Source: a virus. Taken from it: 64,000 bases of DNA. The notes under the pieces were generated by a model, which saw only the letters and a program-made list of their open reading frames with translations, was not told the DNA's origin and ran no database searches. The stretch is taken from IMG/VR virus record IMGVR_UViG_3300033149_004566, positions 1 through 64,000 of that record. One strand, written 5' to 3'. Positions 6,248 to 52,746 of this stretch are shown in pieces (position 1 is the first letter of the stretch; each line of letters opens with the position of its first letter). The translations under genes were made by a program, and so were the position numbers.

Positions 6248-6311
6248 ATTCCGAATTTTCCCGACCCGATCGGTCGAGAAGCGGCAACCGCGATGGTTGC
6301 CGTTTCGGAAT
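6248..6311 (-). terminator. Three-way-junction RNA structure followed by U-tract
   Basis: Outer stem ATTCCGAA/TTCGGAAT enclosing hairpins CGGCAACC/GGTTGCCG and CGACC/GGTCG; T-run downstream on minus strand. Confidence 0.5.
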
Positions 6312-6314
6312 TTA

Positions 6315-6485
6315 TCATGACTTTTTTTTAAGCGGTTTAATTCCGCTTTCCACGCGACGGAGTTCGCCTATGGCGTCATCCACCGCGCGGATGAATCTTT
6401 TATATTTTTTCGGGCCTTCCGCCTGCCTCTTGACCTTTATGAGACAGGCAAAGGCCCTGTTAATATTTAACCCTTCTTCAATCAC
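6315..6485 (-). CDS. Small hypothetical protein (start trimmed from the 6659 call)
   Basis: AAGGAGGTGA SD/GTG at 6485; the upstream extension runs through a structured RNA. Confidence 0.5.
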   Translation of the reverse strand: MIEEGLNINRAFACLIKVKRQAEGPKKYKRFIRAVDDAIGELRRVESGIKPLKKKS

Positions 6486-6623
6486 CTCCTTAACGTTTTT
6501 ATCCCACCGCAGAAATGCATGTTTTCCCGCGCCCGGCCCGGCACTGGAAAACTGCTCTATTGACCAACGGGGATAAGCCGATCGGCCAACTATCCCGCGG
6601 TGCTTGGACAACGTAAGGAGATT

Positions 6624-6678
6624 GAAGATTCTTGGTTTAAAGCCCCGCCGCCGCGTCAAGGCGATCCTCGTGGCGGGG
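6624..6678 (-). ncRNA. Minimal HDV/CPEB3-like ribozyme candidate, copy 1
   Basis: P1 CCCCGCC/GGCGGGG, P2 GAGGAU/AUCUUC, P3 GCC/GGC, L3 UUGACGC, J4/2 CCAA. Confidence 0.75.
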
Positions 6679-6724
6679 AGAAAAAATTAGGAGAAAATAT
6701 AGGCACAGTATGATGAATGTTGAT

Positions 6725-7303
6725 TTATCTAATGAAGTGAGGCTCTCGACAATGATAACATGTCGATTTCCTCAATCCAGCTTCGATAGCTTCTTTATAG
6801 CTATCGTACTTTCTTGGTATGCTTCTCATGACGTCATCGTAAAGCGCATCTGCACTTTGGTCTAAAGACCAGACTTCAGTGCGTTTTACGATGTTGTCGT
6901 TTATTGTCCACCTGTATATCGATACGCTAAAATCCTCGCGATGATGATTCACGTGGATTTCAACGAATCTCTGACCTATGAACGTGGCGTGCTCAGAGCA
7001 CGCCAAGTGTCCTCGTTTAATGACTCGAAACGGCTTTAACTTCTCACCGTTCAAGCCACAAATTATCGTGGCGTGTCCGGTGTTGCTGTATCCGCCGCCG
7101 TTCTCCGATAAAAGAAATCTCCAATAACAGTTCTCCAATTTTGGGAGAACTGTATTGTTATTATATAGGTTGAACAGTTGAGAAACACTGTGCCCTCTGA
7201 GAACCGACCACTGTATTACATGCTCCTCGTTGTCGATTTTAACCGTTTTTATTTCTTCTGGAGCTTCTGTTTTTGCTACTAACTGTAGCAACTCTATCAC
7301 CAA
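6725..7303 (-). CDS. Hypothetical protein (paralog of 1243..1827)
   Basis: GGGYSNTGHATIICGLNGEKLKPF; CYHCREPHFIR. Confidence 0.8.
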   Translation of the reverse strand: MVIELLQLVAKTEAPEEIKTVKIDNEEHVIQWSVLRGHSVSQLFNLYNNNTVLPKLENCYWRFLLSENGGGYSNTGHATIICGLNGEKLKPFRVIKRGHLACSEHATFIGQRFVEIHVNHHREDFSVSIYRWTINDNIVKRTEVWSLDQSADALYDDVMRSIPRKYDSYKEAIEAGLRKSTCYHCREPHFIR

Positions 7304-7361
7304 TTATCTTGCCTTCCCATTCGGAGCCCTTTCGGGCTTTATAGTCGCGTCATTACGACTC

Positions 7362-7418
7362 GATCGCCTCTCGGTACAAGCCCCTCCACCACGACAAGGT
7401 GGACGATCATCGGAGGGG
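7362..7418 (-). ncRNA. Minimal HDV/CPEB3-like ribozyme candidate, copy 2
   Basis: P1 CCCCUCC/GGAGGGG, P2 GAUCGUC/GGCGAUC, P3 ACC/GGU, L3 UUGUCGU, J4/2 CCGA. Confidence 0.78.
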
Positions 7419-7427
7419 AGAAAAAAA

Positions 7428-7550
7428 TTATTCGGATTTCTTGAACATCTCTTCGAGCTCTTTTAAGAGGCGGGAGATGTTTTCCTTCGCCTCCTCGGGC
7501 GAGGAGGGAGGCGAAAGTGGGGAAGATGTGGGAAAGTAATGGATTTTCAT
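7428..7550 (-). CDS. Small 40-aa ORF MKIHYFPTSSPLSPPSSPEEAKENISRLLKELEEMFKKSE
   Basis: Hand-translated; GTGG SD-like site; stop directly before the U-tract and ribozyme copy 2. Confidence 0.45.
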   Translation of the reverse strand: MKIHYFPTSSPLSPPSSPEEAKENISRLLKELEEMFKKSE

Positions 7551-7753
7551 AGTTTACCACGCCATCTTTTTTATTTTTTTTATAATCATAAATACTTTTC
7601 TTATATCGTCTGCTTCGCGCGTCCTGAGCACGCGAAACAGCGCTGTAAGAAAAACTTTCGTATAAATTACACGTCGACAGGTATGTAATGTTAATTTATC
7701 TTGTAGCTGTTCCAATTCTTTACCGCACGGATGTGCGGTAAAGTAATTATGTA

Positions 7754-8059
7754 TTATATTCGTTTTTGCCCCATCCTATACGTAAATATGAAGTCAGTCG
7801 AATCTACAGAAGATAATGGATAGCCCATCTCGCATTCGCGAAACGAGCTGACCATATACCTTAGATTGAAACATCTACCGAATATCTTCCTTCTCATCCG
7901 ATAAGGAAGATATTCCTCCGCAATCCTCGCACGCGCTTTCAGCAAGAAAGCGAAAAGCGCGTCGATAAAAGTGGCACGGCATTTATGACATACCATTTTT
8001 TCTCGCGAAGCAGTTTTCCTTTTCACGTTCATGATTTTTATTATTCTTTTTAGATCCAT
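7754..8059 (-). CDS. Hypothetical protein
   Basis: GGTGA SD before ATG; followed by perfect 11-bp hairpin CTTTACCGCAC/GTGCGGTAAAG. Confidence 0.65.
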   Translation of the reverse strand: MDLKRIIKIMNVKRKTASREKMVCHKCRATFIDALFAFLLKARARIAEEYLPYRMRRKIFGRCFNLRYMVSSFRECEMGYPLSSVDSTDFIFTYRMGQKRI

Positions 8060-8095
8060 TTAATCACCAGACTAAGAAAACGATTCGATTTTACT

Positions 8096-8155
8096 GCGGG
8101 TGAAGCAGTTTCCTGCCCCGCACGTCCCGCAAGGCGTGCGGACTGACAGAAAAAA
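8096..8155 (-). repeat. Structured intergenic repeat (pseudoknot motif B), copy 1
   Basis: 50-bp segment 8106..8155 identical to 8466..8515; stem CCGCACG/CGUGCGG whose loop GCGGG is complementary to downstream CCCGC. Confidence 0.75.
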
Positions 8156-8168
8156 TTTAGATAGAAAG

Positions 8169-8426
8169 TCACCCAACAAGACGTATACCAGCCATACAAT
8201 AGTGCTGATCTCCTCTGTGGTAAATGTTTTTACATTTACTCCAATTTGTCATACAATAATTGCACTCTATGACAGCTACGCAATATTCGTGTCCATATTT
8301 GTCACAGACTTTACTTTTGCAATGCCCTTTATTGTCCTCATAAGGACAAAGAGCAACACAATCTTGTAATGATACAATAGCACCCATATCGAGTGCTTTT
8401 TGTATATATTTCGATATATGTTTCAT
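8169..8426 (-). CDS. Cys-rich small protein (start trimmed to MKHISKY)
   Basis: GGAAGTGG SD before ATG at 8426; many Cys. Confidence 0.65.
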   Translation of the reverse strand: MKHISKYIQKALDMGAIVSLQDCVALCPYEDNKGHCKSKVCDKYGHEYCVAVIECNYCMTNWSKCKNIYHRGDQHYCMAGIRLVG

Positions 8427-8454
8427 TAAACCACTTCCTTTTTTATTTTTTCTA

Positions 8455-8515
8455 GCGGGTCGTAACAGTTTCCTGCCCCGCACGTCCCGCAAGGCGTGCG
8501 GACTGACAGAAAAAA
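8455..8515 (-). repeat. Structured intergenic repeat (pseudoknot motif B), copy 2
   Basis: Identical core to 8106..8155, 360 bp apart; CCCGC retained with a different spacer. Confidence 0.75.
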
Positions 8516-8551
8516 GGAGATTAAAAATAAAGAACTTATGTATACAAATAT

Positions 8552-8857
8552 TTAAATTTCTTCTTCGCTCTCCGCCGCGCATTTGTAGCAGAGATAGATT
8601 TTTTTTTTATTTTCTGATATTTCATCATCATCGTAGGGATCCGGCATTAAAAAAACCCAATACCGGGATCCACATCTCTCGCATGCGTTGCGAGAGATCG
8701 ACTTTTTATATAATATAGAAAAGTGTTCACATGGTTCAATGCTTTTCATTCTTCTGGCATTGCCAGAGAACAAAAAGCACGTTGGATATACGTTGCCATT
8801 CCACGTGTCTATCCACGTGAAATAACAACAAAAATTGCATTTGATTAAATTTATCAT
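8552..8857 (-). CDS. Cys-rich zinc-finger-like small protein
   Basis: CNFC, CERC, CYKC; GGAAGTGA SD. Confidence 0.65.
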   Translation of the reverse strand: MINLIKCNFCCYFTWIDTWNGNVYPTCFLFSGNARRMKSIEPCEHFSILYKKSISRNACERCGSRYWVFLMPDPYDDDEISENKKKIYLCYKCAAESEEEI

Positions 8858-8879
8858 GGTAAATATCACTTCCTTTTAG

Positions 8880-8936
8880 ATCGCCTCTTGGTGGTAAGCC
8901 CCTCCACCACGGCAAGGTGGGCGATTGTCGGAGGGG
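8880..8936 (-). ncRNA. Minimal HDV/CPEB3-like ribozyme candidate, copy 3
   Basis: P1 CCCCUCC/GGAGGGG, P2 AUCGCC/GGCGAU, P3 ACC/GGU, L3 UUGCCGU, J4/2 CCAA. Confidence 0.78.
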
Positions 8937-8953
8937 AGAAAAAAAAGATTGGT

Positions 8954-9268
8954 TTAATCCTCATCATCGTCTTCTTCCACTACATCGTAGTGGAAGAGGC
9001 CTTCCAATTCCTTCCAAGGGAGGAAAGAAAGGGAGACACATGACTCCGAAACGTTACTAACGACTTCCATCGTAAAGAAGTCGTAGTAACCAACATCCTC
9101 CATGAAAGAGGGTTCAAAATCTCCCCCTCTCTTATGGAGGACGAAATTAACTCGACCTCCATATTTTTTCATGGAGTACATAATTGCCTTAATTGACAGC
9201 TTTTTGGAGGGATGTTGTCCTCGAAGTTTTAACTTTAAACATTTTAAAATTGGATCCATAGGCATCAC
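8954..9268 (-). CDS. Hypothetical protein with acidic tail
   Basis: ORF between ribozyme copies 4 and 3. Confidence 0.6.
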   Translation of the reverse strand: MMPMDPILKCLKLKLRGQHPSKKLSIKAIMYSMKKYGGRVNFVLHKRGGDFEPSFMEDVGYYDFFTMEVVSNVSESCVSLSFLPWKELEGLFHYDVVEEDDDED

Positions 9269-9332
9269 ACCGTTTTTTTTTGCATTCCTTTCGGGCTCCT
9301 TTTCGGAGCTTTAGCGTCGGGTCGTCCGACGT

Positions 9333-9389
9333 GACCATCTCTCGGTAAAAGCCTCCCCACCACGGCAAGGTGGATGGTCGTCGGGGAGG
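9333..9389 (-). ncRNA. Minimal HDV/CPEB3-like ribozyme candidate, copy 4
   Basis: P1 CCUCCCC/GGGGAGG, P2 GACCAUC/GAUGGUC, P3 ACC/GGU, L3 UUGCCGU, J4/2 CCGA. Confidence 0.8.
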
Positions 9390-9525
9390 AAAACTTATTC
9401 ACCAGCTCTTTACGCGATCTTCCGCTAGAGGGAGGGAGGATAGGTGAAGAATTATGAAACACAAAAAAAAGGTGCGGAAGATCTTCACGCGAGCCGGTGA
9501 TCTTCAAAAAAATAGTGTGTGAAGT

Positions 9526-10509
9526 TCATGCCTTTTTGGACAGCAGTTTCCACTGATAATATTCGTCCAGCTTGGAATCCAAGTCCAGAAAACAGTCCGT
9601 GCAAAGGCCGTGCATGCGAACCGTCCTACAGGACGGAACGACGTAATTTCCGACTATGCTCTTGAGCTGATCATCGGTAACGCGGGAATTATAATCCCTC
9701 CAATGACCCATGCCGTGCAACTTTTTTATCAGGTCTTTGATGCCGCACGGCGTGAGTTGCCCGGTGTAGAGCAGGTAGACCGTCATCATCCAGCGCGCCC
9801 AGTGCACCGGGTTGTCCGTGCCGAGTATGGATCGTTCGATGCACGGCGGAAGAATCAAGTCCTTAAAAGAAGCCGTATCGGAGCCCGCCATCGACAGAGG
9901 CTCCATGTCGGGATAATTTTTATCCCACGATGAAAGATCGACCAGTTTCTTTCCGATCACCGTGATCTTTCCGCTCGGAGTTCTTGCAAGTTTCAAGACA
10001 TGATCTTTGCCGGCGTAAAGATCGTCCAACGTGACGGGCACGCAATAAAGCCCGGACTTCAAGTGTACCGTGAACGGCACGCGCGCCATCTGGCTCAGGT
10101 CTCCCTTGATGTGAAAATCATTTGACTTCAAATCCAGTTTTTCCTCGACGTGAGCCACGTAGGATCTAAGAGCATTTTTTTTATTCACCGGTTCCGTGCA
10201 CCACCTGTAATGGTGGAATCCTTTTCTTCCGGAAAAAAAATTCACGTGCTTGATGCCGTCATCAATGGCATCGAGTGTCAGCTTGATGGCGTCGTCCAGC
10301 GCGCCCTCACCGTCCAGATCGAAGAACACTTTATCAACCACTGCCGTGGGATAGGTAGCCCGTAGGTGATTGGCTTCACGAAAGCCGTACACCGTGACGT
10401 AACAATGCTTGCCGCCATTATACTTGTTGATGAGATCCATCATTTCTTCCCTGGATCTGACCAGCACGCGTTTTGGGAAGCCGACTTCCCTCGGAAAAAT
10501 ATCATACAT
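9526..10509 (-). CDS. Archaeo-eukaryotic primase (PriS-like catalytic domain fused to PriL-CTD-like Cys domain)
   Basis: FFDLD, SGRKGFH, GDLSQMARVP; C-terminal LPPCI..HWAR..PSC...GLC..C; start trimmed to MYDIFP. Confidence 0.85.
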   Translation of the reverse strand: MYDIFPREVGFPKRVLVRSREEMMDLINKYNGGKHCYVTVYGFREANHLRATYPTAVVDKVFFDLDGEGALDDAIKLTLDAIDDGIKHVNFFSGRKGFHHYRWCTEPVNKKNALRSYVAHVEEKLDLKSNDFHIKGDLSQMARVPFTVHLKSGLYCVPVTLDDLYAGKDHVLKLARTPSGKITVIGKKLVDLSSWDKNYPDMEPLSMAGSDTASFKDLILPPCIERSILGTDNPVHWARWMMTVYLLYTGQLTPCGIKDLIKKLHGMGHWRDYNSRVTDDQLKSIVGNYVVPSCRTVRMHGLCTDCFLDLDSKLDEYYQWKLLSKKA

Positions 10510-11296
10510 TGAAATCAATGTCGTTATCTTTTCTGCATTGCTCGAAACAGGGACAGCCTTCCATCCACCTGCCATCTTTTAACTGCCTCGTGAAGCAATT
10601 ATAACCGGGCTTTGGCGAAAACTCACCGCGCTCTATCGCACTTATCACCTTATCTCTAGATTTCAAAGCATAGGTCTTCGTGACTTTTTGCAACGGCTCG
10701 AATAACACGACGTTATCCCGCGGATACACGCAACATATAAACTTCACCGGTTCTTTAAATTGTTTTTCCATCGCTATGGAATACAACGCCAGTTGCTTCT
10801 TGGTGTCGCCTATCAATTTTCCGTCCTTTGGAGCGTGCCCGGTTTTATATTCGGTGGGATGTAAAGAACCATCATAGGCCCTATCTATCCTGTCTATCTT
10901 GCCCTTCAACCTTATGTCCTCGTCCTTGAAATACAACTCGCAAGCCACGGGATACCAATATTCGTAAACATCGAGCCCCATCTCGCGAATTTCCATCAGT
11001 CTCGTGGTTTCCATCATGCAGAAATTTTTTATCATGGGGTCGTCAACGCGCTTGGGAATGATCTTCTTGAAAGTCTCGAGAAAATACTCGTAAATTTCTC
11101 TTTCGGTCACCAATTCTTTGAGATGTTTGATGTTGATCGCGGGAAAAAATTGCTCGTATGCGTCGTGTATTATTATACCGTCCATTGCTATTTCCGGCAT
11201 GTCGTATTTCATCTTGTCTATGTACAGGTACTTGTACTTCATCGGACACTGCAAGTACGTGAAGATTTCCGTCTTGCTCACGGCATCGACTCTCAT
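10502..11296 (-). CDS. Cas4-like/RecB-family PD-(D/E)XK exonuclease
   Basis: CPMKY, GKIDRID, EYKTG, QLALYS and three C-terminal Cys. Confidence 0.85.
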   Translation of the reverse strand: MRVDAVSKTEIFTYLQCPMKYKYLYIDKMKYDMPEIAMDGIIIHDAYEQFFPAINIKHLKELVTEREIYEYFLETFKKIIPKRVDDPMIKNFCMMETTRLMEIREMGLDVYEYWYPVACELYFKDEDIRLKGKIDRIDRAYDGSLHPTEYKTGHAPKDGKLIGDTKKQLALYSIAMEKQFKEPVKFICCVYPRDNVVLFEPLQKVTKTYALKSRDKVISAIERGEFSPKPGYNCFTRQLKDGRWMEGCPCFEQCRKDNDIDFNV

Positions 11297-31251: not shown

Positions 31252-31380
31252 TCAACTCCTTTTTTTCTTTTTTTCTTCTGTAAGCTTGATGCAATCGTAT
31301 TCTTGAACGCACAAGAGGCATTTCATGCTCGTAAACGATCTTTCATCATACTTACCAAAACATTTTTTTTTCTCATTCAT
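31252..31380 (-). CDS. Small four-Cys protein
   Basis: Hand-translated MNEKKKCFGKYDERSFTSMKCLLCVQEYDCIKL; ATGA overlap. Confidence 0.5.
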   Translation of the reverse strand: MNEKKKCFGKYDERSFTSMKCLLCVQEYDCIKLTEEKKKKRS

Positions 31381-32057
31381 ATATTGCACTCACCATTAAT
31401 AAACTTTTCGATATCATTCATTAATCTCACGAGCGGAACTCCATCCACCACGCGATGATCGGCAACCACCACGACTGGCAAAACTTTTCTCATCCTTAGA
31501 AAACCATCTTTTATTATCAGGACATCTTTAATACCACTTATTATAAAAAAAAATGTAAAATGCGTCTGAGTAAAAGCCACTCCAGTTGCTTCTGGGCCCA
31601 AGTTTGATAAACCAATAATTCCCGTGGTTTTTTTCTTTACCCAAGCACTTTTTTCATGGATCCACCAAAAAGCACGTCTAAGTATTCCTGGTAAGGAGTG
31701 AAAGCTACGAACGACAGGATTTTTCTTGAATTCGTTCATGGCATTCCTGATATCATCAACCGACATTTTCCCAACGTTTTTCAACACGCACGGATACGGA
31801 TCCACGCGACCGTTCACTTCAACGTTTAAAGTTACCGTGGCGGTAATTTCATCGATCCATTTTTTTCCACCGCGCACCCAAGCCGAATGTAAATCAGAGT
31901 GAGGTTGACGCGAAAGAAGCGCGACTATGGCTCTTAACATGCGAGCCGTGATGTCGTGCGTATTTTCAGTCACATCCACGTCCACTTGATAACATAAGGG
32001 ATGAAACTTTCTTGACTGCATCACCATATCGGAAATTATCGATTTTCTAAAATTCAT
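31377..32057 (-). CDS. Stand-alone 2-oxoacid dehydrogenase E2-type acyltransferase catalytic domain
   Basis: RKSII..M..S, VDVDVT, LSNLG, catalytic DHRVVDG. Confidence 0.85.
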   Translation of the reverse strand: MNFRKSIISDMVMQSRKFHPLCYQVDVDVTENTHDITARMLRAIVALLSRQPHSDLHSAWVRGGKKWIDEITATVTLNVEVNGRVDPYPCVLKNVGKMSVDDIRNAMNEFKKNPVVRSFHSLPGILRRAFWWIHEKSAWVKKKTTGIIGLSNLGPEATGVAFTQTHFTFFFIISGIKDVLIIKDGFLRMRKVLPVVVVADHRVVDGVPLVRLMNDIEKFINGECNI

Positions 32058-40878: not shown

Positions 40879-41279
40879 TTTAAAGACCTCGCACTGCTTT
40901 TTCTGGTTCGCGGGCTGTCGAAAACGAAGTCGCAGACCAGGTGATTTACCACGCCAAAGAAAGCCGCAACCGGTAGTATTATCAGATAGAAGTGAAGTAA
41001 CACTCCGGCCGCCCACGGGGCCGCGAAGATGAATGCCGCCGCGATTGAGTGGAAGTGTCCCCTGTGCTTGACATGACGCTTTAGGATTTTTCCGATGGGG
41101 GTTCTGGGGTGATCCCAGTCGGGGAATGTAACTCCGATGTAGTATGGGATTAGAGCCGCCATGATTAGAATTGCAAGGATGACATCAGATGGAGAGACCA
41201 CGAAGATTAGAATTGACGTCATTTGTGCAGCGACGGCGGCGAATGCGAGGTGTTCCATTAGATTTCCCATGGCAATCAT
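40869..41279 (-). CDS. Membrane-bound metal-dependent hydrolase (YdjM-like)
   Basis: H..., FPDWDH, HRGHFHS, HLVCD with hydrophobic segments. Confidence 0.8.
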   Translation of the reverse strand: MIAMGNLMEHLAFAAVAAQMTSILIFVVSPSDVILAILIMAALIPYYIGVTFPDWDHPRTPIGKILKRHVKHRGHFHSIAAAFIFAAPWAAGVLLHFYLIILPVAAFFGVVNHLVCDFVFDSPRTRKSSARSLKFW

Positions 41280-41539
41280 TCCTCCGATTTTTCATTGGTG
41301 CGGATTTCGCACCCGGCTGCAGGCGGTTCTCTGAGAATTTTTTGGCCGGCTGGACGGCATTGTCTCGGGCCCGCCACCCCTAACATGGGCCCGACACGCC
41401 CCGTGACAATTGAAATAGGAATGCTGTAATTTTCCGGATGTTGATCTAGAGAAGATCTTCCGGATCGTATTTTTAGATTCATTCTATCACCATCCATCCC
41501 GTTTAAAACGGGTTGAATTCGTATTTTCCGAAACCCGGG

Positions 41540-41845
41540 GCTGCGAAAATTTTTTTACGGTATTGGCGAATACCGTATAATCTTCGAGCAGGGAGAGGAT
41601 TTCGGCGCGATCTTTTCTATAAATGGATTTTCTCATTTTTTACGGTATTAACGGTATATAAATACCCCTTAAAAAATATTTTTTTTTTATTTTATAATAA
41701 TATATTCTATATATATATATATTAGTGCCCGTAATCCGTAATTCCTGAAATCGAGGAGAGACGACATTTTGGCCGTATCTCTCCGTAGATTGAAAGTTGC
41801 AAATTTATTACGGGCAATAACGGTAAATCGAGGAGAGACGAGATT
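41540..41845. other. AT-rich non-coding region with direct and inverted repeats (origin or packaging-site candidate)
   Basis: (TA)n tract; 17-bp direct repeat AAATCGAGGAGAGACGA at 41748 and 41825; IR TGCCCGTAAT/ATTACGGGCA; palindrome TACGGTATT-GGCG-AATACCGTA. Confidence 0.5.
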
Positions 41846-41851
41846 TTTGTC

Positions 41852-42313
41852 CTACCGCGTCATGTTGTCAAAATAGCATGTCTTGTATGCTTCGTTAGGG
41901 ACGTATAGGTCGTCTATTGGGTGGAACGTGATGCATTCCAAATTGCTGAAGTCCGCCATGAACTCGTCGAAGTCGAATTCGGGGTCGAATAGTGCGTTTT
42001 GTTGGATGTCTTTGAGTAGTTCTGACGTGAATGCGCGTTCGGGGTTGATGTTCTTGAATATGTCCCAGTATTTTTCGATGATTTTCTTGTCGTTTTCTGT
42101 TGGTTGCTTGCTGTTGTTGTTTTGCTGTTTTTTATTATTGGTTGTTCGCCGCATGTTTCTTTCAATCCTCGGCTGGTAATAGTGTCGCACGATTGCGCGA
42201 ATTGCATGAGCCCGGCTTTCAAAAACACCGGACTCGATGTCTCTTTGGAGTTCCTCATGGAACGCCTTAAGTAACCGCACCCTAATGTAGGGCCCAAACT
42301 GAGCGTATGTCAA
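41852..42313 (-). CDS. Ribbon-helix-helix (CopG-like) DNA-binding protein with extra C-terminal domain
   Basis: IRVRL...ELQRDIESGVFESRAHAIRAIVRHY; Asn/Gln/Lys linker. Confidence 0.7.
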   Translation of the reverse strand: MTYAQFGPYIRVRLLKAFHEELQRDIESGVFESRAHAIRAIVRHYYQPRIERNMRRTTNNKKQQNNNSKQPTENDKKIIEKYWDIFKNINPERAFTSELLKDIQQNALFDPEFDFDEFMADFSNLECITFHPIDDLYVPNEAYKTCYFDNMTR

Positions 42314-42370
42314 ATCTATACCCCAAGTTGGTATAGGGTTATGCCAACTCTATACCCTATTTTGGTACAA
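42311..42370. repeat. Cluster of GGYATAG repeats overlapping the RHH gene start/leader
   Basis: 42340..42357 is the exact reverse complement of 18820..18837. Confidence 0.75.
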
Positions 42371-42391
42371 GTTTTTTTATGCCCAATCACA

Positions 42392-42426
42392 TATATAAAT
42401 GTTTCGGTCACCGAAAGATTTATATA
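42392..42426. promoter_or_regulatory. Back-to-back divergent archaeal BRE-TATA promoters
   Basis: CCGAAACATTTATATA (minus) and CCGAAAGATTTATATA (plus), 3 bp apart, at the strand switch. Confidence 0.8.
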
Positions 42427-42684
42427 GGATGAAATACTATATTACTCTAGGTATGTTAAATTTCTTCGGATATTATTATATTTATAAAAAGCCATCTCTT
42501 CGAGAGCGGTCTGGAGAGCATTCTGATGATCATGGAAGAGACACGGCGAAATTTAAAGGAGGCAAGACATCACGAGTGAATTGATAAAGTGCCCGGAATG
42601 CGGCGAGTCGTATTATCTCGACGAGCTGGTACGGGTTAAATACAAGGATAGAGAGATTGACGTCAGTACTAAATAATTTGGGAG

Positions 42685-43422
42685 ATGCCCGGCGTGTCTA
42701 AATGCAAGGTATGCGATCAGCCGTTCACGGCCGAGATGGAGCGGCTGCGGCTAAAGCTGCCAGTCCTCTCGTATGACCGCGTCCGCGAATGGTTGCGCGT
42801 CAAGCACAACTTTAGCGTGTCCAGAGATACCTTGATACGCCACTTCAGAGAGCATGTCAGAGCTCCCGAAAATAATTCGTGCAAGATCTGTGCCGCAGGC
42901 CTCGCCGATGAAATTGCTAATTTTGTCATGAAAGGGGCCCACCCATCGATCATCGCACGGTTCTGCCGCGAAAAAGGACACGACATAAAGGAGCCTGATG
43001 TTCATTCCCACCTGGAGCACATGGAGGTCGAAGATAATGAAGACCACGTCGTGGCCGCCCGGGTGGTGGAATTAGAGACAAAGAGAGACCTCAGATCACT
43101 AGACGAAATCGAGGAACTCGGAAAATTGATCTATAAACGAATGGACAGGATCAAAAGGCTCGAAGAAAGGGTGGAATCGGTAACGGGCCCCGACTCCAAA
43201 ACGCTAAAAGAAATCGACGCGCTGCAAAAAAACCTGATCGAATACCACAAGCTAAGGCAAAACATCGGGCAGATCGATACCGTGCAAAAAGCACAGCTTA
43301 ACATGGTTCTAATTCAGCAGGTATCAACGCTGCCAAAAGAACGCGTCAGCGATCTCGTCAATCTATTAAAATCTAAACTCGGCATGGAGGATAAAGAAAT
43401 TCCTAAAATATCCGTTAAATAG
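42685..43422 (+). CDS. Putative terminase small subunit / DNA-binding protein with two CxxC..H..H repeats
   Basis: CKVC..HFREH and CKIC..HLEH repeats, coiled-coil C-terminus; first large gene of the late arm. Confidence 0.5.
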   Translation: MPGVSKCKVCDQPFTAEMERLRLKLPVLSYDRVREWLRVKHNFSVSRDTLIRHFREHVRAPENNSCKICAAGLADEIANFVMKGAHPSIIARFCREKGHDIKEPDVHSHLEHMEVEDNEDHVVAARVVELETKRDLRSLDEIEELGKLIYKRMDRIKRLEERVESVTGPDSKTLKEIDALQKNLIEYHKLRQNIGQIDTVQKAQLNMVLIQQVSTLPKERVSDLVNLLKSKLGMEDKEIPKISVK

Positions 43423-49934: not shown

Positions 49935-50320
49935 TTGAAAAGGGCATGTGCCCTATTAGAGCCCCACATAGAGCTAAAAAAATACGTGCCATGATTTCCG
50001 AGTTTGGATTTCGGATAGGCGACCCCGAGCTCAGATCTCCTTTAACTATGGACTTGCTTTTGAAAAATAGAGAAAAAATTCAAAAACAAATTGCCGAAGA
50101 AACGTCAGAAACTGCTCTGGAAATGCTGAATAAATCTCTAAATAAATTGAATGACAGGATAAAGTATCGCGAGGAAATGTTGCGGACGGTTTTATATCCG
50201 AAGGGTAAAGTTCCTTTCTCGATACAAAAAAAGTTTCCGATGTCGTTCTGGTCTACTAAAGGTGGGTTGAGAAATGTTCAAACGGTTGGTGTGAGAAGGC
50301 GTGGACGTAAGAAGCATTAG
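49931..50320 (+). CDS. Hypothetical protein
   Basis: Overlaps terminase start. Confidence 0.6.
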   Translation: MIEKGMCPIRAPHRAKKIRAMISEFGFRIGDPELRSPLTMDLLLKNREKIQKQIAEETSETALEMLNKSLNKLNDRIKYREEMLRTVLYPKGKVPFSIQKKFPMSFWSTKGGLRNVQTVGVRRRGRKKH

Positions 50321-51989
50321 TCCGTTTTTGGATGATTTTCTAAAAAAATACGATTTCAAGGGCATGGATGATAACAGAATCATGAAGATGCTCTTGTCGT
50401 CTTTAGATTGGTCTACGTTTGCGGAAACGTGGTTTAGAAACCCAATAGATCCCACGCTACCATTAAAATTGGAAAAGTTTCAGCGCCGCATCATAAATTA
50501 TTTTCAATACGGCAAGTGCAGTAACATAATTGTCAAGTGCCCCCGTCAATTTGGTAAAACCACTCTCATATCGATATTGTGTAATTTAATTGCCATTTTT
50601 GATCCGGGTGCTAAGATAGGCCTATTTTCTACATCACACGACCAGTCCAAGGAGATATTGGGTAAGGTCAGGAAATTCATGAGAACGTCGGCATTTTCTT
50701 ACTTACTTGACGATAAAAGCGTTCAAACGCAAACCGAAATAAATTATAAGGATCCTCGCGGCCTTGGGCATGGGTGCAGGATTAAAGCGTATTCTAGTTC
50801 TGGCAAAACCGTTCGTGGCCCCGATTTGACTTACACGTTTATGGATGAAATGGGCCAAATGGACGACGACTTCGTAAATCAGGTTGTCCGTCCGATGGGA
50901 AGGGCTGTTGGAAAGAAAGAACTCGGGGCAAGCACTCCTTTCGGTACGAGGGGCGAGTTTTGGAACTCACATGAGAAGCCGTATCATTGGGAATGTCAAT
51001 CGTGTCATGCTAAGGGCTTTGATGAACCACACCCTTACACGTGCCCGAAATGCGGCGGTTCAGTTCAGACTCTTGGCCAATATAAAGTGTTTGATGTTTC
51101 ACCTCTTGACGTGTCTTGGATCACGCCCGAAAAACTTGCGGCAGAAGCTGCACGTCTCGGCCCGATTGCAGCGCAACAGGAGCTGTTTGGAGAGTTTATC
51201 CCGGCCGGAGATACTTATTTTAGACACGACTGGATAGTGAATGCCAGGGTTTTCACGCCAGAGCAAAATTCAAGATTTTCATCCATGGGAAAACCGTATT
51301 ATACCTATTATCTTTCCACGGATTATGGTAAACAACGTGATAGAGGCGTGATCATGATAGGCCATTTTCAGGATGACGTGTTGTATCTGGATTGGGTCGA
51401 ATCACATCTAAAAATGCCGTATCCAAGATTTCAAGATAGAATGAAAACTCTTTGTGATAGATATAATGTTTCAGAGGCCATTTTGGATGGGAACGGTGTC
51501 GGAATTGCTCTCATAGATTATCTCCGCGAGGACGTGCAGGTGCCGATTTTTACCAACAAGCCCGATTTGGGCCCCGGATATAAGTACGGTAACAAGGAGA
51601 AATTTCAGATGTTGGAAGCTCTTGCCAACATGTTGATACGGAAGAGAGTTCGTTGGCCGTATCATGAAAATCACTCTGACCCGAGGCAGGAAATGTATGA
51701 GTTATACATGATGGAGCAGGAGCTCATCAATTATTCTTATGAATGGGGAAAATCGTCAATCATAATGGGAACTCAGAGCGAGCACGACGATAGGGTCATG
51801 GCTTTGGCACAGCTCGTTGGGGCAACAATGATGACACATTTTGACGATGTCATGCCGTATGGGGCTTCTGACGTGTCAAGAGATGATCGCGGATGGCCGG
51901 TTTTTGACGAGGTCGGGGAAGAATTTGACGTGATGTGGGTTGATAACACGACGGATCCGGAGTACGAAATATATGACACCATCTTCTGA
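50301..51989 (+). CDS. terL: Terminase large subunit
   Basis: PRQFGKTT, TFMDEM, ASTPFG, STDYG, LDGNGVG, HDDRV. Confidence 0.93.
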   Translation: MDVRSISPFLDDFLKKYDFKGMDDNRIMKMLLSSLDWSTFAETWFRNPIDPTLPLKLEKFQRRIINYFQYGKCSNIIVKCPRQFGKTTLISILCNLIAIFDPGAKIGLFSTSHDQSKEILGKVRKFMRTSAFSYLLDDKSVQTQTEINYKDPRGLGHGCRIKAYSSSGKTVRGPDLTYTFMDEMGQMDDDFVNQVVRPMGRAVGKKELGASTPFGTRGEFWNSHEKPYHWECQSCHAKGFDEPHPYTCPKCGGSVQTLGQYKVFDVSPLDVSWITPEKLAAEAARLGPIAAQQELFGEFIPAGDTYFRHDWIVNARVFTPEQNSRFSSMGKPYYTYYLSTDYGKQRDRGVIMIGHFQDDVLYLDWVESHLKMPYPRFQDRMKTLCDRYNVSEAILDGNGVGIALIDYLREDVQVPIFTNKPDLGPGYKYGNKEKFQMLEALANMLIRKRVRWPYHENHSDPRQEMYELYMMEQELINYSYEWGKSSIIMGTQSEHDDRVMALAQLVGATMMTHFDDVMPYGASDVSRDDRGWPVFDEVGEEFDVMWVDNTTDPEYEIYDTIF

Positions 51990-52746
51990 CTTGCGGCCGA
52001 AAATATCCCTTTTTACGTTATTGCCTTACGTGATTCAGGAGCATAAAGCCAAGCGTGCCGGCTTACACTACGACTTTCGCGTGAAGCGCGGCGAAAATGA
52101 TTGGGAATCCTGGGCGATAAGAAAGGGATTTCCGAAAAAGCCCGGGATAAAACATCTGGCCGCACCGACGCCGAGTCATGATGAATATTGGGCAAAATTT
52201 AGCGGCGTCATACCCAGGGGTTACGGCTCCGGTAGACAGAAAGTCGTTGAAAGCGGAAAAATAGACGTGATAAGGGAGCGAAAGAAAAAAAATAAATCGA
52301 TTACTTTCAAAAAGGGAAAAGATTATTACACCATGATAAAGTTAAAAAAGGGAAAAAATTGGTTGATTTTTAAAAACGAGTCGGTGAAGTGGCGCAGGAC
52401 GAAGAGCGGGGGCAAATTTCCGAAGATCGATGAGATGGAAAAGGGAATGCCAAAAATGACGAACAAGCAATATAAGGAGTTTTACAAGCGGATGTTGGAC
52501 TTGGGCTTGTTGAATCAATATAAAACGATTGGTAAGCCCATAAAACAGGATCATGGGGGCATACCCATAATAGAAGATGGAATGTCGGCTCTTTCGGCTT
52601 ATCCTACAGCTATAGGGGAAGTGTGTCCGAAATGTGGACACCCGGAAATAAAAACGTGGCAGCGTCAGACTAGATCTGCTGACGAACCGATGACGCAGTT
52701 TTTCAGATGTGTCAGGTGCGGATATACCTGGAGGGAATACGATTGA
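51973..52746 (+). CDS. LigD-type 3'-phosphoesterase fused to TFS/TFIIS C-terminal zinc ribbon
   Basis: VIQEH..LHYDFR..SWAIRKG..HLA....H...FSGVIPRGYGSG; CPKCG..QRQTRSADEPMTQFFRCVRCGYTWREY. Confidence 0.88.
   Translation: MTPSSDLRPKISLFTLLPYVIQEHKAKRAGLHYDFRVKRGENDWESWAIRKGFPKKPGIKHLAAPTPSHDEYWAKFSGVIPRGYGSGRQKVVESGKIDVIRERKKKNKSITFKKGKDYYTMIKLKKGKNWLIFKNESVKWRRTKSGGKFPKIDEMEKGMPKMTNKQYKEFYKRMLDLGLLNQYKTIGKPIKQDHGGIPIIEDGMSALSAYPTAIGEVCPKCGHPEIKTWQRQTRSADEPMTQFFRCVRCGYTWREYD

Follow-up and report, generated by a model that had tools for sequence, protein, structure and literature searches.

The active-site Tyr of LigD-type 3'-phosphoesterases (PE) positions water for the 3'-phosphomonoesterase step of these enzymes, and the N-terminal zinc ribbon of the transcript-cleavage factor TFS normally anchors TFS on RNA polymerase (RNAP). 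In the archaeal enzyme CkoPE, alanine mutants at His9, His15, Asp17, Arg19 and His51 lose activity, and in both CkoPE and MbaPE replacement of the Tyr by Ala leaves 18–23% phosphodiesterase conversion, the need for the Tyr being stricter in the 3'-phosphomonoesterase step (PMC3082917). CkoPE prefers single-stranded substrates, and ~90% of its product is the 3'-phosphate (PMC3258152). A link between PE and TFS has appeared in one clause of the Nidhogg virus paper, which mentions a "DNA ligase (ligD) with a TFS-II-like zinc finger". In this study, we analyzed a gene in a 64,000-nucleotide stretch of viral DNA (positions 1 to 64,000 of IMG/VR record IMGVR_UViG_3300033149_004566, referred to here as the window), which is part of a 112,862-bp virus record with direct terminal repeats. 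The gene encodes a genuine fusion protein, in which a LigD-type 3'-phosphoesterase is joined to the C-terminal zinc ribbon of TFS/TFIIS. The virus is very probably Nidhogg virus, which is large and tailed and infects Asgard-type archaea (Helarchaeota). As the 112,862-bp record has neither a ligase adenylation domain (PF01068) nor Ku (PF02735), and no PE domain other than that of the fusion, it is very probable that the published label was meant for this gene and claims more than the gene encodes.

Both parts of the protein, which an earlier note made from the DNA letters had proposed to be fused, scored well above the Pfam cut-offs: LigD_N (PF13298) at residues 22–107 (E 7e-16, 58.7 bits, cut-off 31.1) and Zn_ribbon_TFIIS (PF01096) at residues 218–254 (E 1e-17, 63.9 bits, cut-off 21). 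The closest sequences of known structure were CkoPE of Candidatus Korarchaeum (3p4h, 5e-18) and MbaPE of Methanosarcina (3p43, 3e-15) for the PE part, and Thermococcus celer TFS (1qyp, 2e-12) and the RNAP III subunit RPC10/C11 (5e-11) for the ribbon. An AlphaFold (AF2) model built on a 62-sequence alignment consists of the PE barrel, a short helical segment (residues 152–183), a disordered stretch (residues 183–209) and the ribbon, so that two separate domains are joined by a disordered linker (pTM 0.53). When this model was searched with Foldseek, PE structures ranked first, followed by TFIIS, A12.2, C11 and TFS chains, while PHROGs provided no informative family for the protein.

The coding sequence (Table 1) opens with ATG and continues without an internal stop for 257 codons plus the stop codon. 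Its ATG lies inside the 3' end of the terminase gene terL, giving a 17-nt overlap that includes the terL stop, and a TTG at 51940, upstream of the ATG, is an alternative start. The possibility that two unrelated genes had been joined artificially, by a stop codon that was missed, by a frameshift or by chimeric assembly, is essentially refuted by several observations. These are that the open reading frame is uninterrupted in the window, that the identical protein is encoded on two contigs (the longest being 117,419 bp), that the stretch is present in two DNA runs from marine-sediment samples, and that a variant with two substitutions (P0156) was found on a third contig as the same continuous open reading frame. 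The two DNA runs, the only ones found to contain the stretch, belong to one study, which fits the two near-identical genomes, one per sample, that are described in the Nidhogg virus paper; no RNA data set with the stretch was found. In addition, an independent relative, P0006, which is only 39–47% identical to the fusion, shows these parts, the middle segment among them, in the same order and in one continuous reading frame. A protein resembling such a chimera does exist: P0120 (169 residues, on an ENA contig of 180,551 bp) matches both Pfam domains. Its N-terminal part corresponds to positions 1–64 of a bacterial-type PE and is followed directly by a ribbon that lacks the first CxxC and then by a low-complexity tail. 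We rejected it as a genuine fusion since the truncated PE, truncated ribbon and junk tail make it a probable chimera or pseudogene.

The PE-TFS architecture is real and also extremely rare. In an exhaustive HMMER pass over 1.84 billion representative proteins, which yielded 3,912 matches at E ≤0.001, P0006 was the one other full-length relative of the fusion. P0006 has 302 residues and is a singleton from a 2.8-kb ENA contig. A search of IMG/VR with the family alignment produced no further fusion, only a phage locus (L002) in which PE is joined to a ligase, and JGI metagenomes provided only two tandem stand-alone PEs (L007). No fusion was found in GTDB genomes, no further one in word-based searches with P0001, its C-terminal region and P0006, no match in GenBank phages by tblastn, and no cluster with both families in the ESM Atlas. 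A scan of IMG/VR for the ribbon pattern returned one distant match, on a 277-kb viral contig, and this was the only other instance that we found of a TFS-type secondary-channel module in a prokaryotic virus. A genome scan for the origin of the ribbon returned mostly TFS of Caldarchaeales, although the exact peptide patterns used bias such a scan and we draw no conclusion from it as to donor or host.

The PE domain of the fusion has the residues expected of an active enzyme. The barrel was modeled with pLDDT >90 and matched 3p4h in Foldseek (E 4e-8, TM 0.80), with the eight-stranded fold of the superfamily. In agreement with the earlier note, which had recognized the HxxxxxxxHYDFR ligands and a downstream His, residues H24, H32, D34, R36 and H69 align with His9, His15, Asp17, Arg19 and His51 of CkoPE, the five essential residues, so that the metal ligands (His, His, Asp) and the phosphate binders (Arg, His) are all present. 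Relative to CkoPE, the spacing of the metal histidines is longer by two inserted residues ("AG"). The active-site Tyr of the superfamily is replaced: W73 aligns with Tyr55 of CkoPE and is adjacent to Y72. The earlier note was therefore correct in placing a Trp at this position, but the Trp does not set the fusion apart. Among 114 PE matches with a recognizable motif, the Tyr55-equivalent position is Tyr in 83 and Trp in 16, and Trp is frequent among the closest PE relatives, which have the "AG" insertion in common. Both features are therefore traits of a PE subfamily rather than peculiarities of this protein. Based on the Trp and the published data on the Tyr-to-Ala mutants, we predict a weak 3'-phosphatase with retained diesterase activity. 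The domain would then be an active, manganese-dependent enzyme that resects 3'-nucleosides, with a phosphatase step that is weak or absent. All of the PE catalytic residues and the Y-W pair are also present in P0006. Since the catalytic residues are kept in both diverged family members, the PE is probably an enzyme and not a scaffold.

The remainder of the protein corresponds to TFS from which the N-terminal ribbon has been removed. The C-terminal ribbon has the four ligands Cys218, Cys221, Cys246 and Cys249 (C218-P-K-C221 ... C246-V-R-C249) and is three-stranded in the AF2 model. Cellular TFS sequences align with the fusion from residue 184 (P0110) or 198, with the linker pattern IPIIE...P in register, and identity to them reaches 51–55% over residues 184–257. 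Because the homology extends into the linker, the protein is best described as TFS minus its N-terminal ribbon rather than as a PE with a stray zinc ribbon. No match to the N-terminal zinc ribbon (PF02150) or to TFIIS domain II (PF07500) was obtained at E <0.1, and an N-terminal ribbon is absent since the only four cysteines of the protein are those of the C-terminal ribbon. The earlier note had read both of these features from the sequence, the retained acidic hairpin and the missing N-terminal ribbon, and both hold, with the QTRSADEP tip present and no cysteine before residue 218. The helical segment that precedes the linker is partly conserved with P0006 (pattern E..E.G.P..T.KQ....KR..DLG) and is possibly a replacement anchor on RNAP.

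P0006 is also informative with regard to the tip. It has lost all four zinc cysteines and yet keeps QQTRSADEP...TWREY exactly, and it is still predicted to form the ribbon beta-strands. Selection therefore seems to act on the acidic tip, and this conservation is the best single argument for such selection. We know of no role for the acidic tip other than in RNAP active centres. The QTRSADEP tip is of the cleavage-competent type and differs from that of the inhibitor TFS4, which is rich in Lys (PMC5715097).

Table 1. Positions of the fusion gene, of its parts and of genes discussed in the text (window coordinates, except for the RNA ligase)
Feature	Position	Strand	Basis
PE-TFS fusion coding sequence	51973..52746	+	continuous open reading frame; same in relatives P0006 and P0156
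LigD-type 3'-phosphoesterase beta-barrel, residues 17–136, net charge +18	52021..52380	+	Pfam, PDB, AF2, Foldseek
Metal/phosphate motif H24-x7-H32-Y-D34-F-R36	52042..52080	+	alignment to 3p4h; roles from PMC3082917
Phosphate-binding H69 and W73	52177..52191	+	alignment to 3p4h; invariant in P0006
Short helical segment, residues 150–183	52420..52521	+	AF2 helices 152–158, 164–176, 180–183, moderate pLDDT
TFS-like interdomain linker, residues 184–215, predicted disordered	52522..52617	+	TFS alignment; pLDDT <50 at 183–209
TFS/TFIIS-type C-terminal zinc ribbon, residues 216–257	52618..52743	+	Pfam, PDB, AF2 pLDDT 75–91
Acidic hairpin tip Q232-T-R-S-A-D237-E238-P239	52666..52689	+	sequence; identical in P0006
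Terminase large subunit (terL), upstream, overlapping	50301..51989	+	Pfam TerL_ATPase; PHROG terL E 5e-30
Probable portal protein (lead), 603 residues	53054..54865	+	no Pfam/PHROG match; ESM-Atlas portal look-alikes
MuF head protein + AEP-like middle + TFIIB cyclin repeat, 752 residues	55267..57525	+	Phage_Mu_F 1e-14, TFIIB 3e-12
T4 Rnl1-type RNA ligase	virus record, about 111,650–112,730 (L006:1132–2208)	-	PF09511, E 2e-17

The function that we favour for the fusion, with a probability of roughly 0.45, is that of a factor which the virus supplies to the secondary channel of the host RNAP and in which an active 3'-end phosphodiesterase replaces the anchoring ribbon. The protein would be a TFS relative that has retained the linker as well as the C-terminal ribbon and its Asp-Glu tip, the PE and the helical segment standing in place of the N-terminal ribbon. 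Ribbon and linker would enter the secondary channel, through which nucleoside triphosphates reach the active site, as TFS does, and the Asp-Glu tip could stimulate the intrinsic transcript cleavage of RNAP. The manganese-dependent PE domain would thereby be placed at the mouth of the channel, where backtracked RNA or the released fragment could offer it single-stranded 3' ends as substrates. Removal of the terminal nucleoside would leave a 3'-phosphate, the follow-up 3'-phosphatase step being predicted to be weak owing to the Trp. For the fusion as such, we infer RNAP binding, stimulation of cleavage, PE activity and any coupling of the two. No Rpb1- or Rpb2-type RNAP was found in the virus record, which means that the virus must rely on the host enzyme. 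The suggestion in the earlier note of a viral RNAP modulator joined to a 3'-end-healing enzyme is thus carried forward by inference, from this absence, from the homology to the TFS linker and from the tip of P0006.

Several points weigh against such a role. The N-terminal ribbon, the usual anchor of TFS on RNAP, is missing, and the ability of the PE to reach from the funnel mouth to the RNA 3' end is presumed. The change from Tyr to Trp alters a residue important for the monoesterase step. As the family amounts to three distinct sequences, the arguments from conservation rest on one diverged pair. The gene is located in a packaging and head operon and not among transcription genes, and the host presumably has its own TFS, which makes the benefit to the virus less obvious.

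The AF2 model, with its separate domains and disordered linker, is also what would be expected if the two functions were uncoupled. In that case the protein would mainly be a TFS-type factor with which the virus prevents arrest or improves fidelity on long late operons, and the PE would serve only as a structural anchor or in an unrelated repair of DNA ends. The intact linker, ribbon and tip are in keeping with this alternative, and the long co-directional gene blocks of the virus would profit from anti-arrest activity. However, the conserved catalytic residues in both diverged members indicate that the PE is probably more than an anchor, the fusion has persisted at 39–47% identity, and the host already has a TFS. 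We consider an uncoupled pair of functions rather unlikely.

A second alternative takes the same position in the secondary channel but gives it the opposite consequence. The fusion could be an inhibitor that shuts off host RNAP, with the ribbon in the channel and the PE producing 3'-phosphates that cannot be extended, or with cleavage being over-stimulated. It is known that TFS paralogues in the secondary channel can inhibit potently, as TFS4 does (PMC5715097), and the main product of archaeal PE is a 3'-phosphate (PMC3258152), to which the Trp of the fusion could contribute, as it occupies the site at which Tyr-to-Ala preferentially abolishes the phosphatase step. Nevertheless, the tip is the acidic cleavage-type DE and not the basic TFS4-type, the virus itself needs the host RNAP, and a late operon is an odd location for a shut-off factor, all of which make inhibition very unlikely.

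The location of the gene also affects when a secondary-channel factor of the favoured, cleavage-stimulating kind would be expected to operate. Since the gene is in the late head operon, the fusion is expected to function late in infection, or might be carried by the virion. The head module in the window comprises terL, the probable portal, the MuF protein, a cement protein and the major head protein. The placement of the gene between terL and a portal gene, as given in the earlier note, was confirmed on the terL side, whereas the portal is a lead only. The look-alikes of that 603-residue product in the ESM Atlas are Mu-type portals (score 0.94, TM 0.5–0.56). TerL itself has an insertion at residues 229–256, between its ATPase and nuclease parts, in the form of a CxxC...CxxC zinc-ribbon-like segment with a weak match to DUF7129.

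The only other transcription-factor domain that we found in the genome is 2.5 kb downstream and is likewise part of a fusion protein. The MuF protein that contains it has the Mu F domain at residues 145–266 and the TFIIB cyclin repeat at residues 617–703. The region between them contains the motifs DLD and SGKRGYH and weakly resembles an archaeal polymerase of non-homologous end joining (NHEJ; 5DMU, E 0.5). MuF proteins are packaged in capsids, and this MuF-AEP-TFIIB fusion could be a factor that is delivered with the virion. In a bolder version of the favoured function, the PE-TFS fusion would be a transcript-cleavage factor of a new type, one that supplies the polymerase with a nuclease of its own. 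The tip would open or position the 3' end of a backtracked or blocked RNA in the host RNAP and the tethered PE would trim it, by removing terminal nucleosides or leaving a 3'-phosphate, with the result that the virus could rescue, reset or terminate the host polymerases that transcribe its genome. Possibly the fusion would act jointly with its MuF-AEP-TFB neighbour, the two forming a LigD-derived toolkit directed at the transcription machinery. We regard this version as unlikely.

A third alternative concerns nucleic acid repair, and its evidence comes from other parts of the genome. The fusion might be an end-healing enzyme for viral RNA or DNA, for example by preparing 3' ends for the viral T4 Rnl1-type RNA ligase or by processing replication intermediates, with the ribbon as a generic module for binding nucleic acid or protein. 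An RNA ligase of that type is indeed encoded in the genome (Table 1), viral PE domains are usually fused to ligases (L002 and a viral PE-ligase cluster of 514 members), and the PE domain is strongly basic. However, the RNA ligase gene is ~60 kb distant, and no polynucleotide kinase (AAA_33), RtcB, DNA ligase or Ku was found in the virus record. In addition, a generic binding module leaves unexplained both the TFS linker and the exact retention of QTRSADEP after the loss of the zinc ligands. End healing is therefore quite unlikely as the main function. The idea, raised in the earlier note, that the PE-type activity might act on 3' ends left by ribozyme cleavage found no support. Rfam detected no ribozyme at its gathering score in the window, and only four chance-level matches at E ≤1 in the region 6300–9700, a result that leaves room for a non-canonical element there. 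Furthermore, the word "cyclic" is absent from the PE papers searched, which include PMC3082917 and PMC3258152 and make no mention of a cyclic-phosphate activity.

The window also encodes a family B DNA polymerase, an anaerobic ribonucleotide reductase, a weak match to a primase small subunit, an XPF-type nuclease and a C5 DNA methylase. Gene orientation flips at about 41,000–43,000: up to ~42 kb nearly every gene is on the minus strand, and beyond it on the plus strand. The GC skew switches sign where the gene orientation changes, which suggests that transcription diverges, or replication starts, from this point. Two genes are unusual auxiliary genes for a virus: one for a B12-binding protein (PF02310 plus PF02607; 34813–35571, minus strand) and one for a protein that contains part of the catalytic domain of a 2-oxoacid dehydrogenase acyltransferase (31377–32057, minus strand).

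The bare co-occurrence of PE and TFS is not new, as it was noted in print in one clause. What is new here is that the domains are read correctly, that linker and tip of TFS are seen to be retained, that a relative without the cysteines exists and that the architecture is rare. Our results correct the published annotation in that the gene has no ligase domain. To our knowledge, no cleavage factor with a separate phosphoesterase has been described. Asgard archaea are the closest prokaryotic relatives of eukaryotes, and if the two parts of the fusion are coupled, the protein would represent a new viral way to manipulate a eukaryote-like RNAP in these archaea. Coupling would also provide a physiological context for the archaeal PE enzyme. 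The 2011 structural paper on the archaeal PE enzymes stated that their role was unknown.

The fusion resembles TFS at one end and a minimal archaeal PE at the other, and of each family it lacks one defining feature, the N-terminal ribbon and the active-site Tyr, respectively. It shares the same linker, Cys4 C-terminal ribbon, QTRSADEP hairpin and TWREY end with archaeal TFS/TFS1, C11/RPC10, A12.2 and domain III of TFIIS. It differs from TFS in having, in place of the N-terminal ribbon (PF02150), a 120-residue PE and the helical segment, in being encoded by a virus, and in having a relative, P0006, without any zinc ligands. With the stand-alone archaeal PEs (CkoPE, 3P4H; MbaPE, 3P43; Methanocella PE, 5DMP) it has in common the minimal eight-stranded barrel and the His-His-Asp metal and Arg-His phosphate sites, at 33–37% identity and TM 0.8, whereas the two-residue insertion, the Trp in place of Tyr and the C-terminal TFS module distinguish it from them. 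In contrast to the LigD set of NHEJ, the fusion has no ligase, polymerase or Ku in cis, and the complete set was not found, only the weakly LigD-Pol-like AEP inside the MuF fusion being present in the genome. The closest PE subfamily is that of the phage PE-DNA ligase fusions (the 437-residue protein of L002 and the 514-member viral cluster), in which the KRAG insertion is present and Trp is frequent, and the PE of L002 is the closest viral PE to that of the fusion. The L002 gene is at 9944–11257 on the plus strand of an IMG/VR contig of 113,573 bp, where neighbouring large genes have apparent intein-like insertions in multisubunit RNAP-like proteins. Those phage proteins likewise have a virus-borne, N-terminal PE in a protein of two parts, but their C-terminal partner is an ATP-dependent ligase (PF01068), whereas here it is a transcription-factor module. 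Sulfolobus TFS4 offers a further parallel as a TFS-derived protein of the secondary channel which is involved in virus-host conflict, being induced on virus infection and inhibiting RNAP (PMC5715097). TFS4 is, however, encoded by the host, has lost neither ribbon and carries a tip that is shortened and rich in Lys, whereas the tip of the viral fusion is acidic and of the cleavage type.

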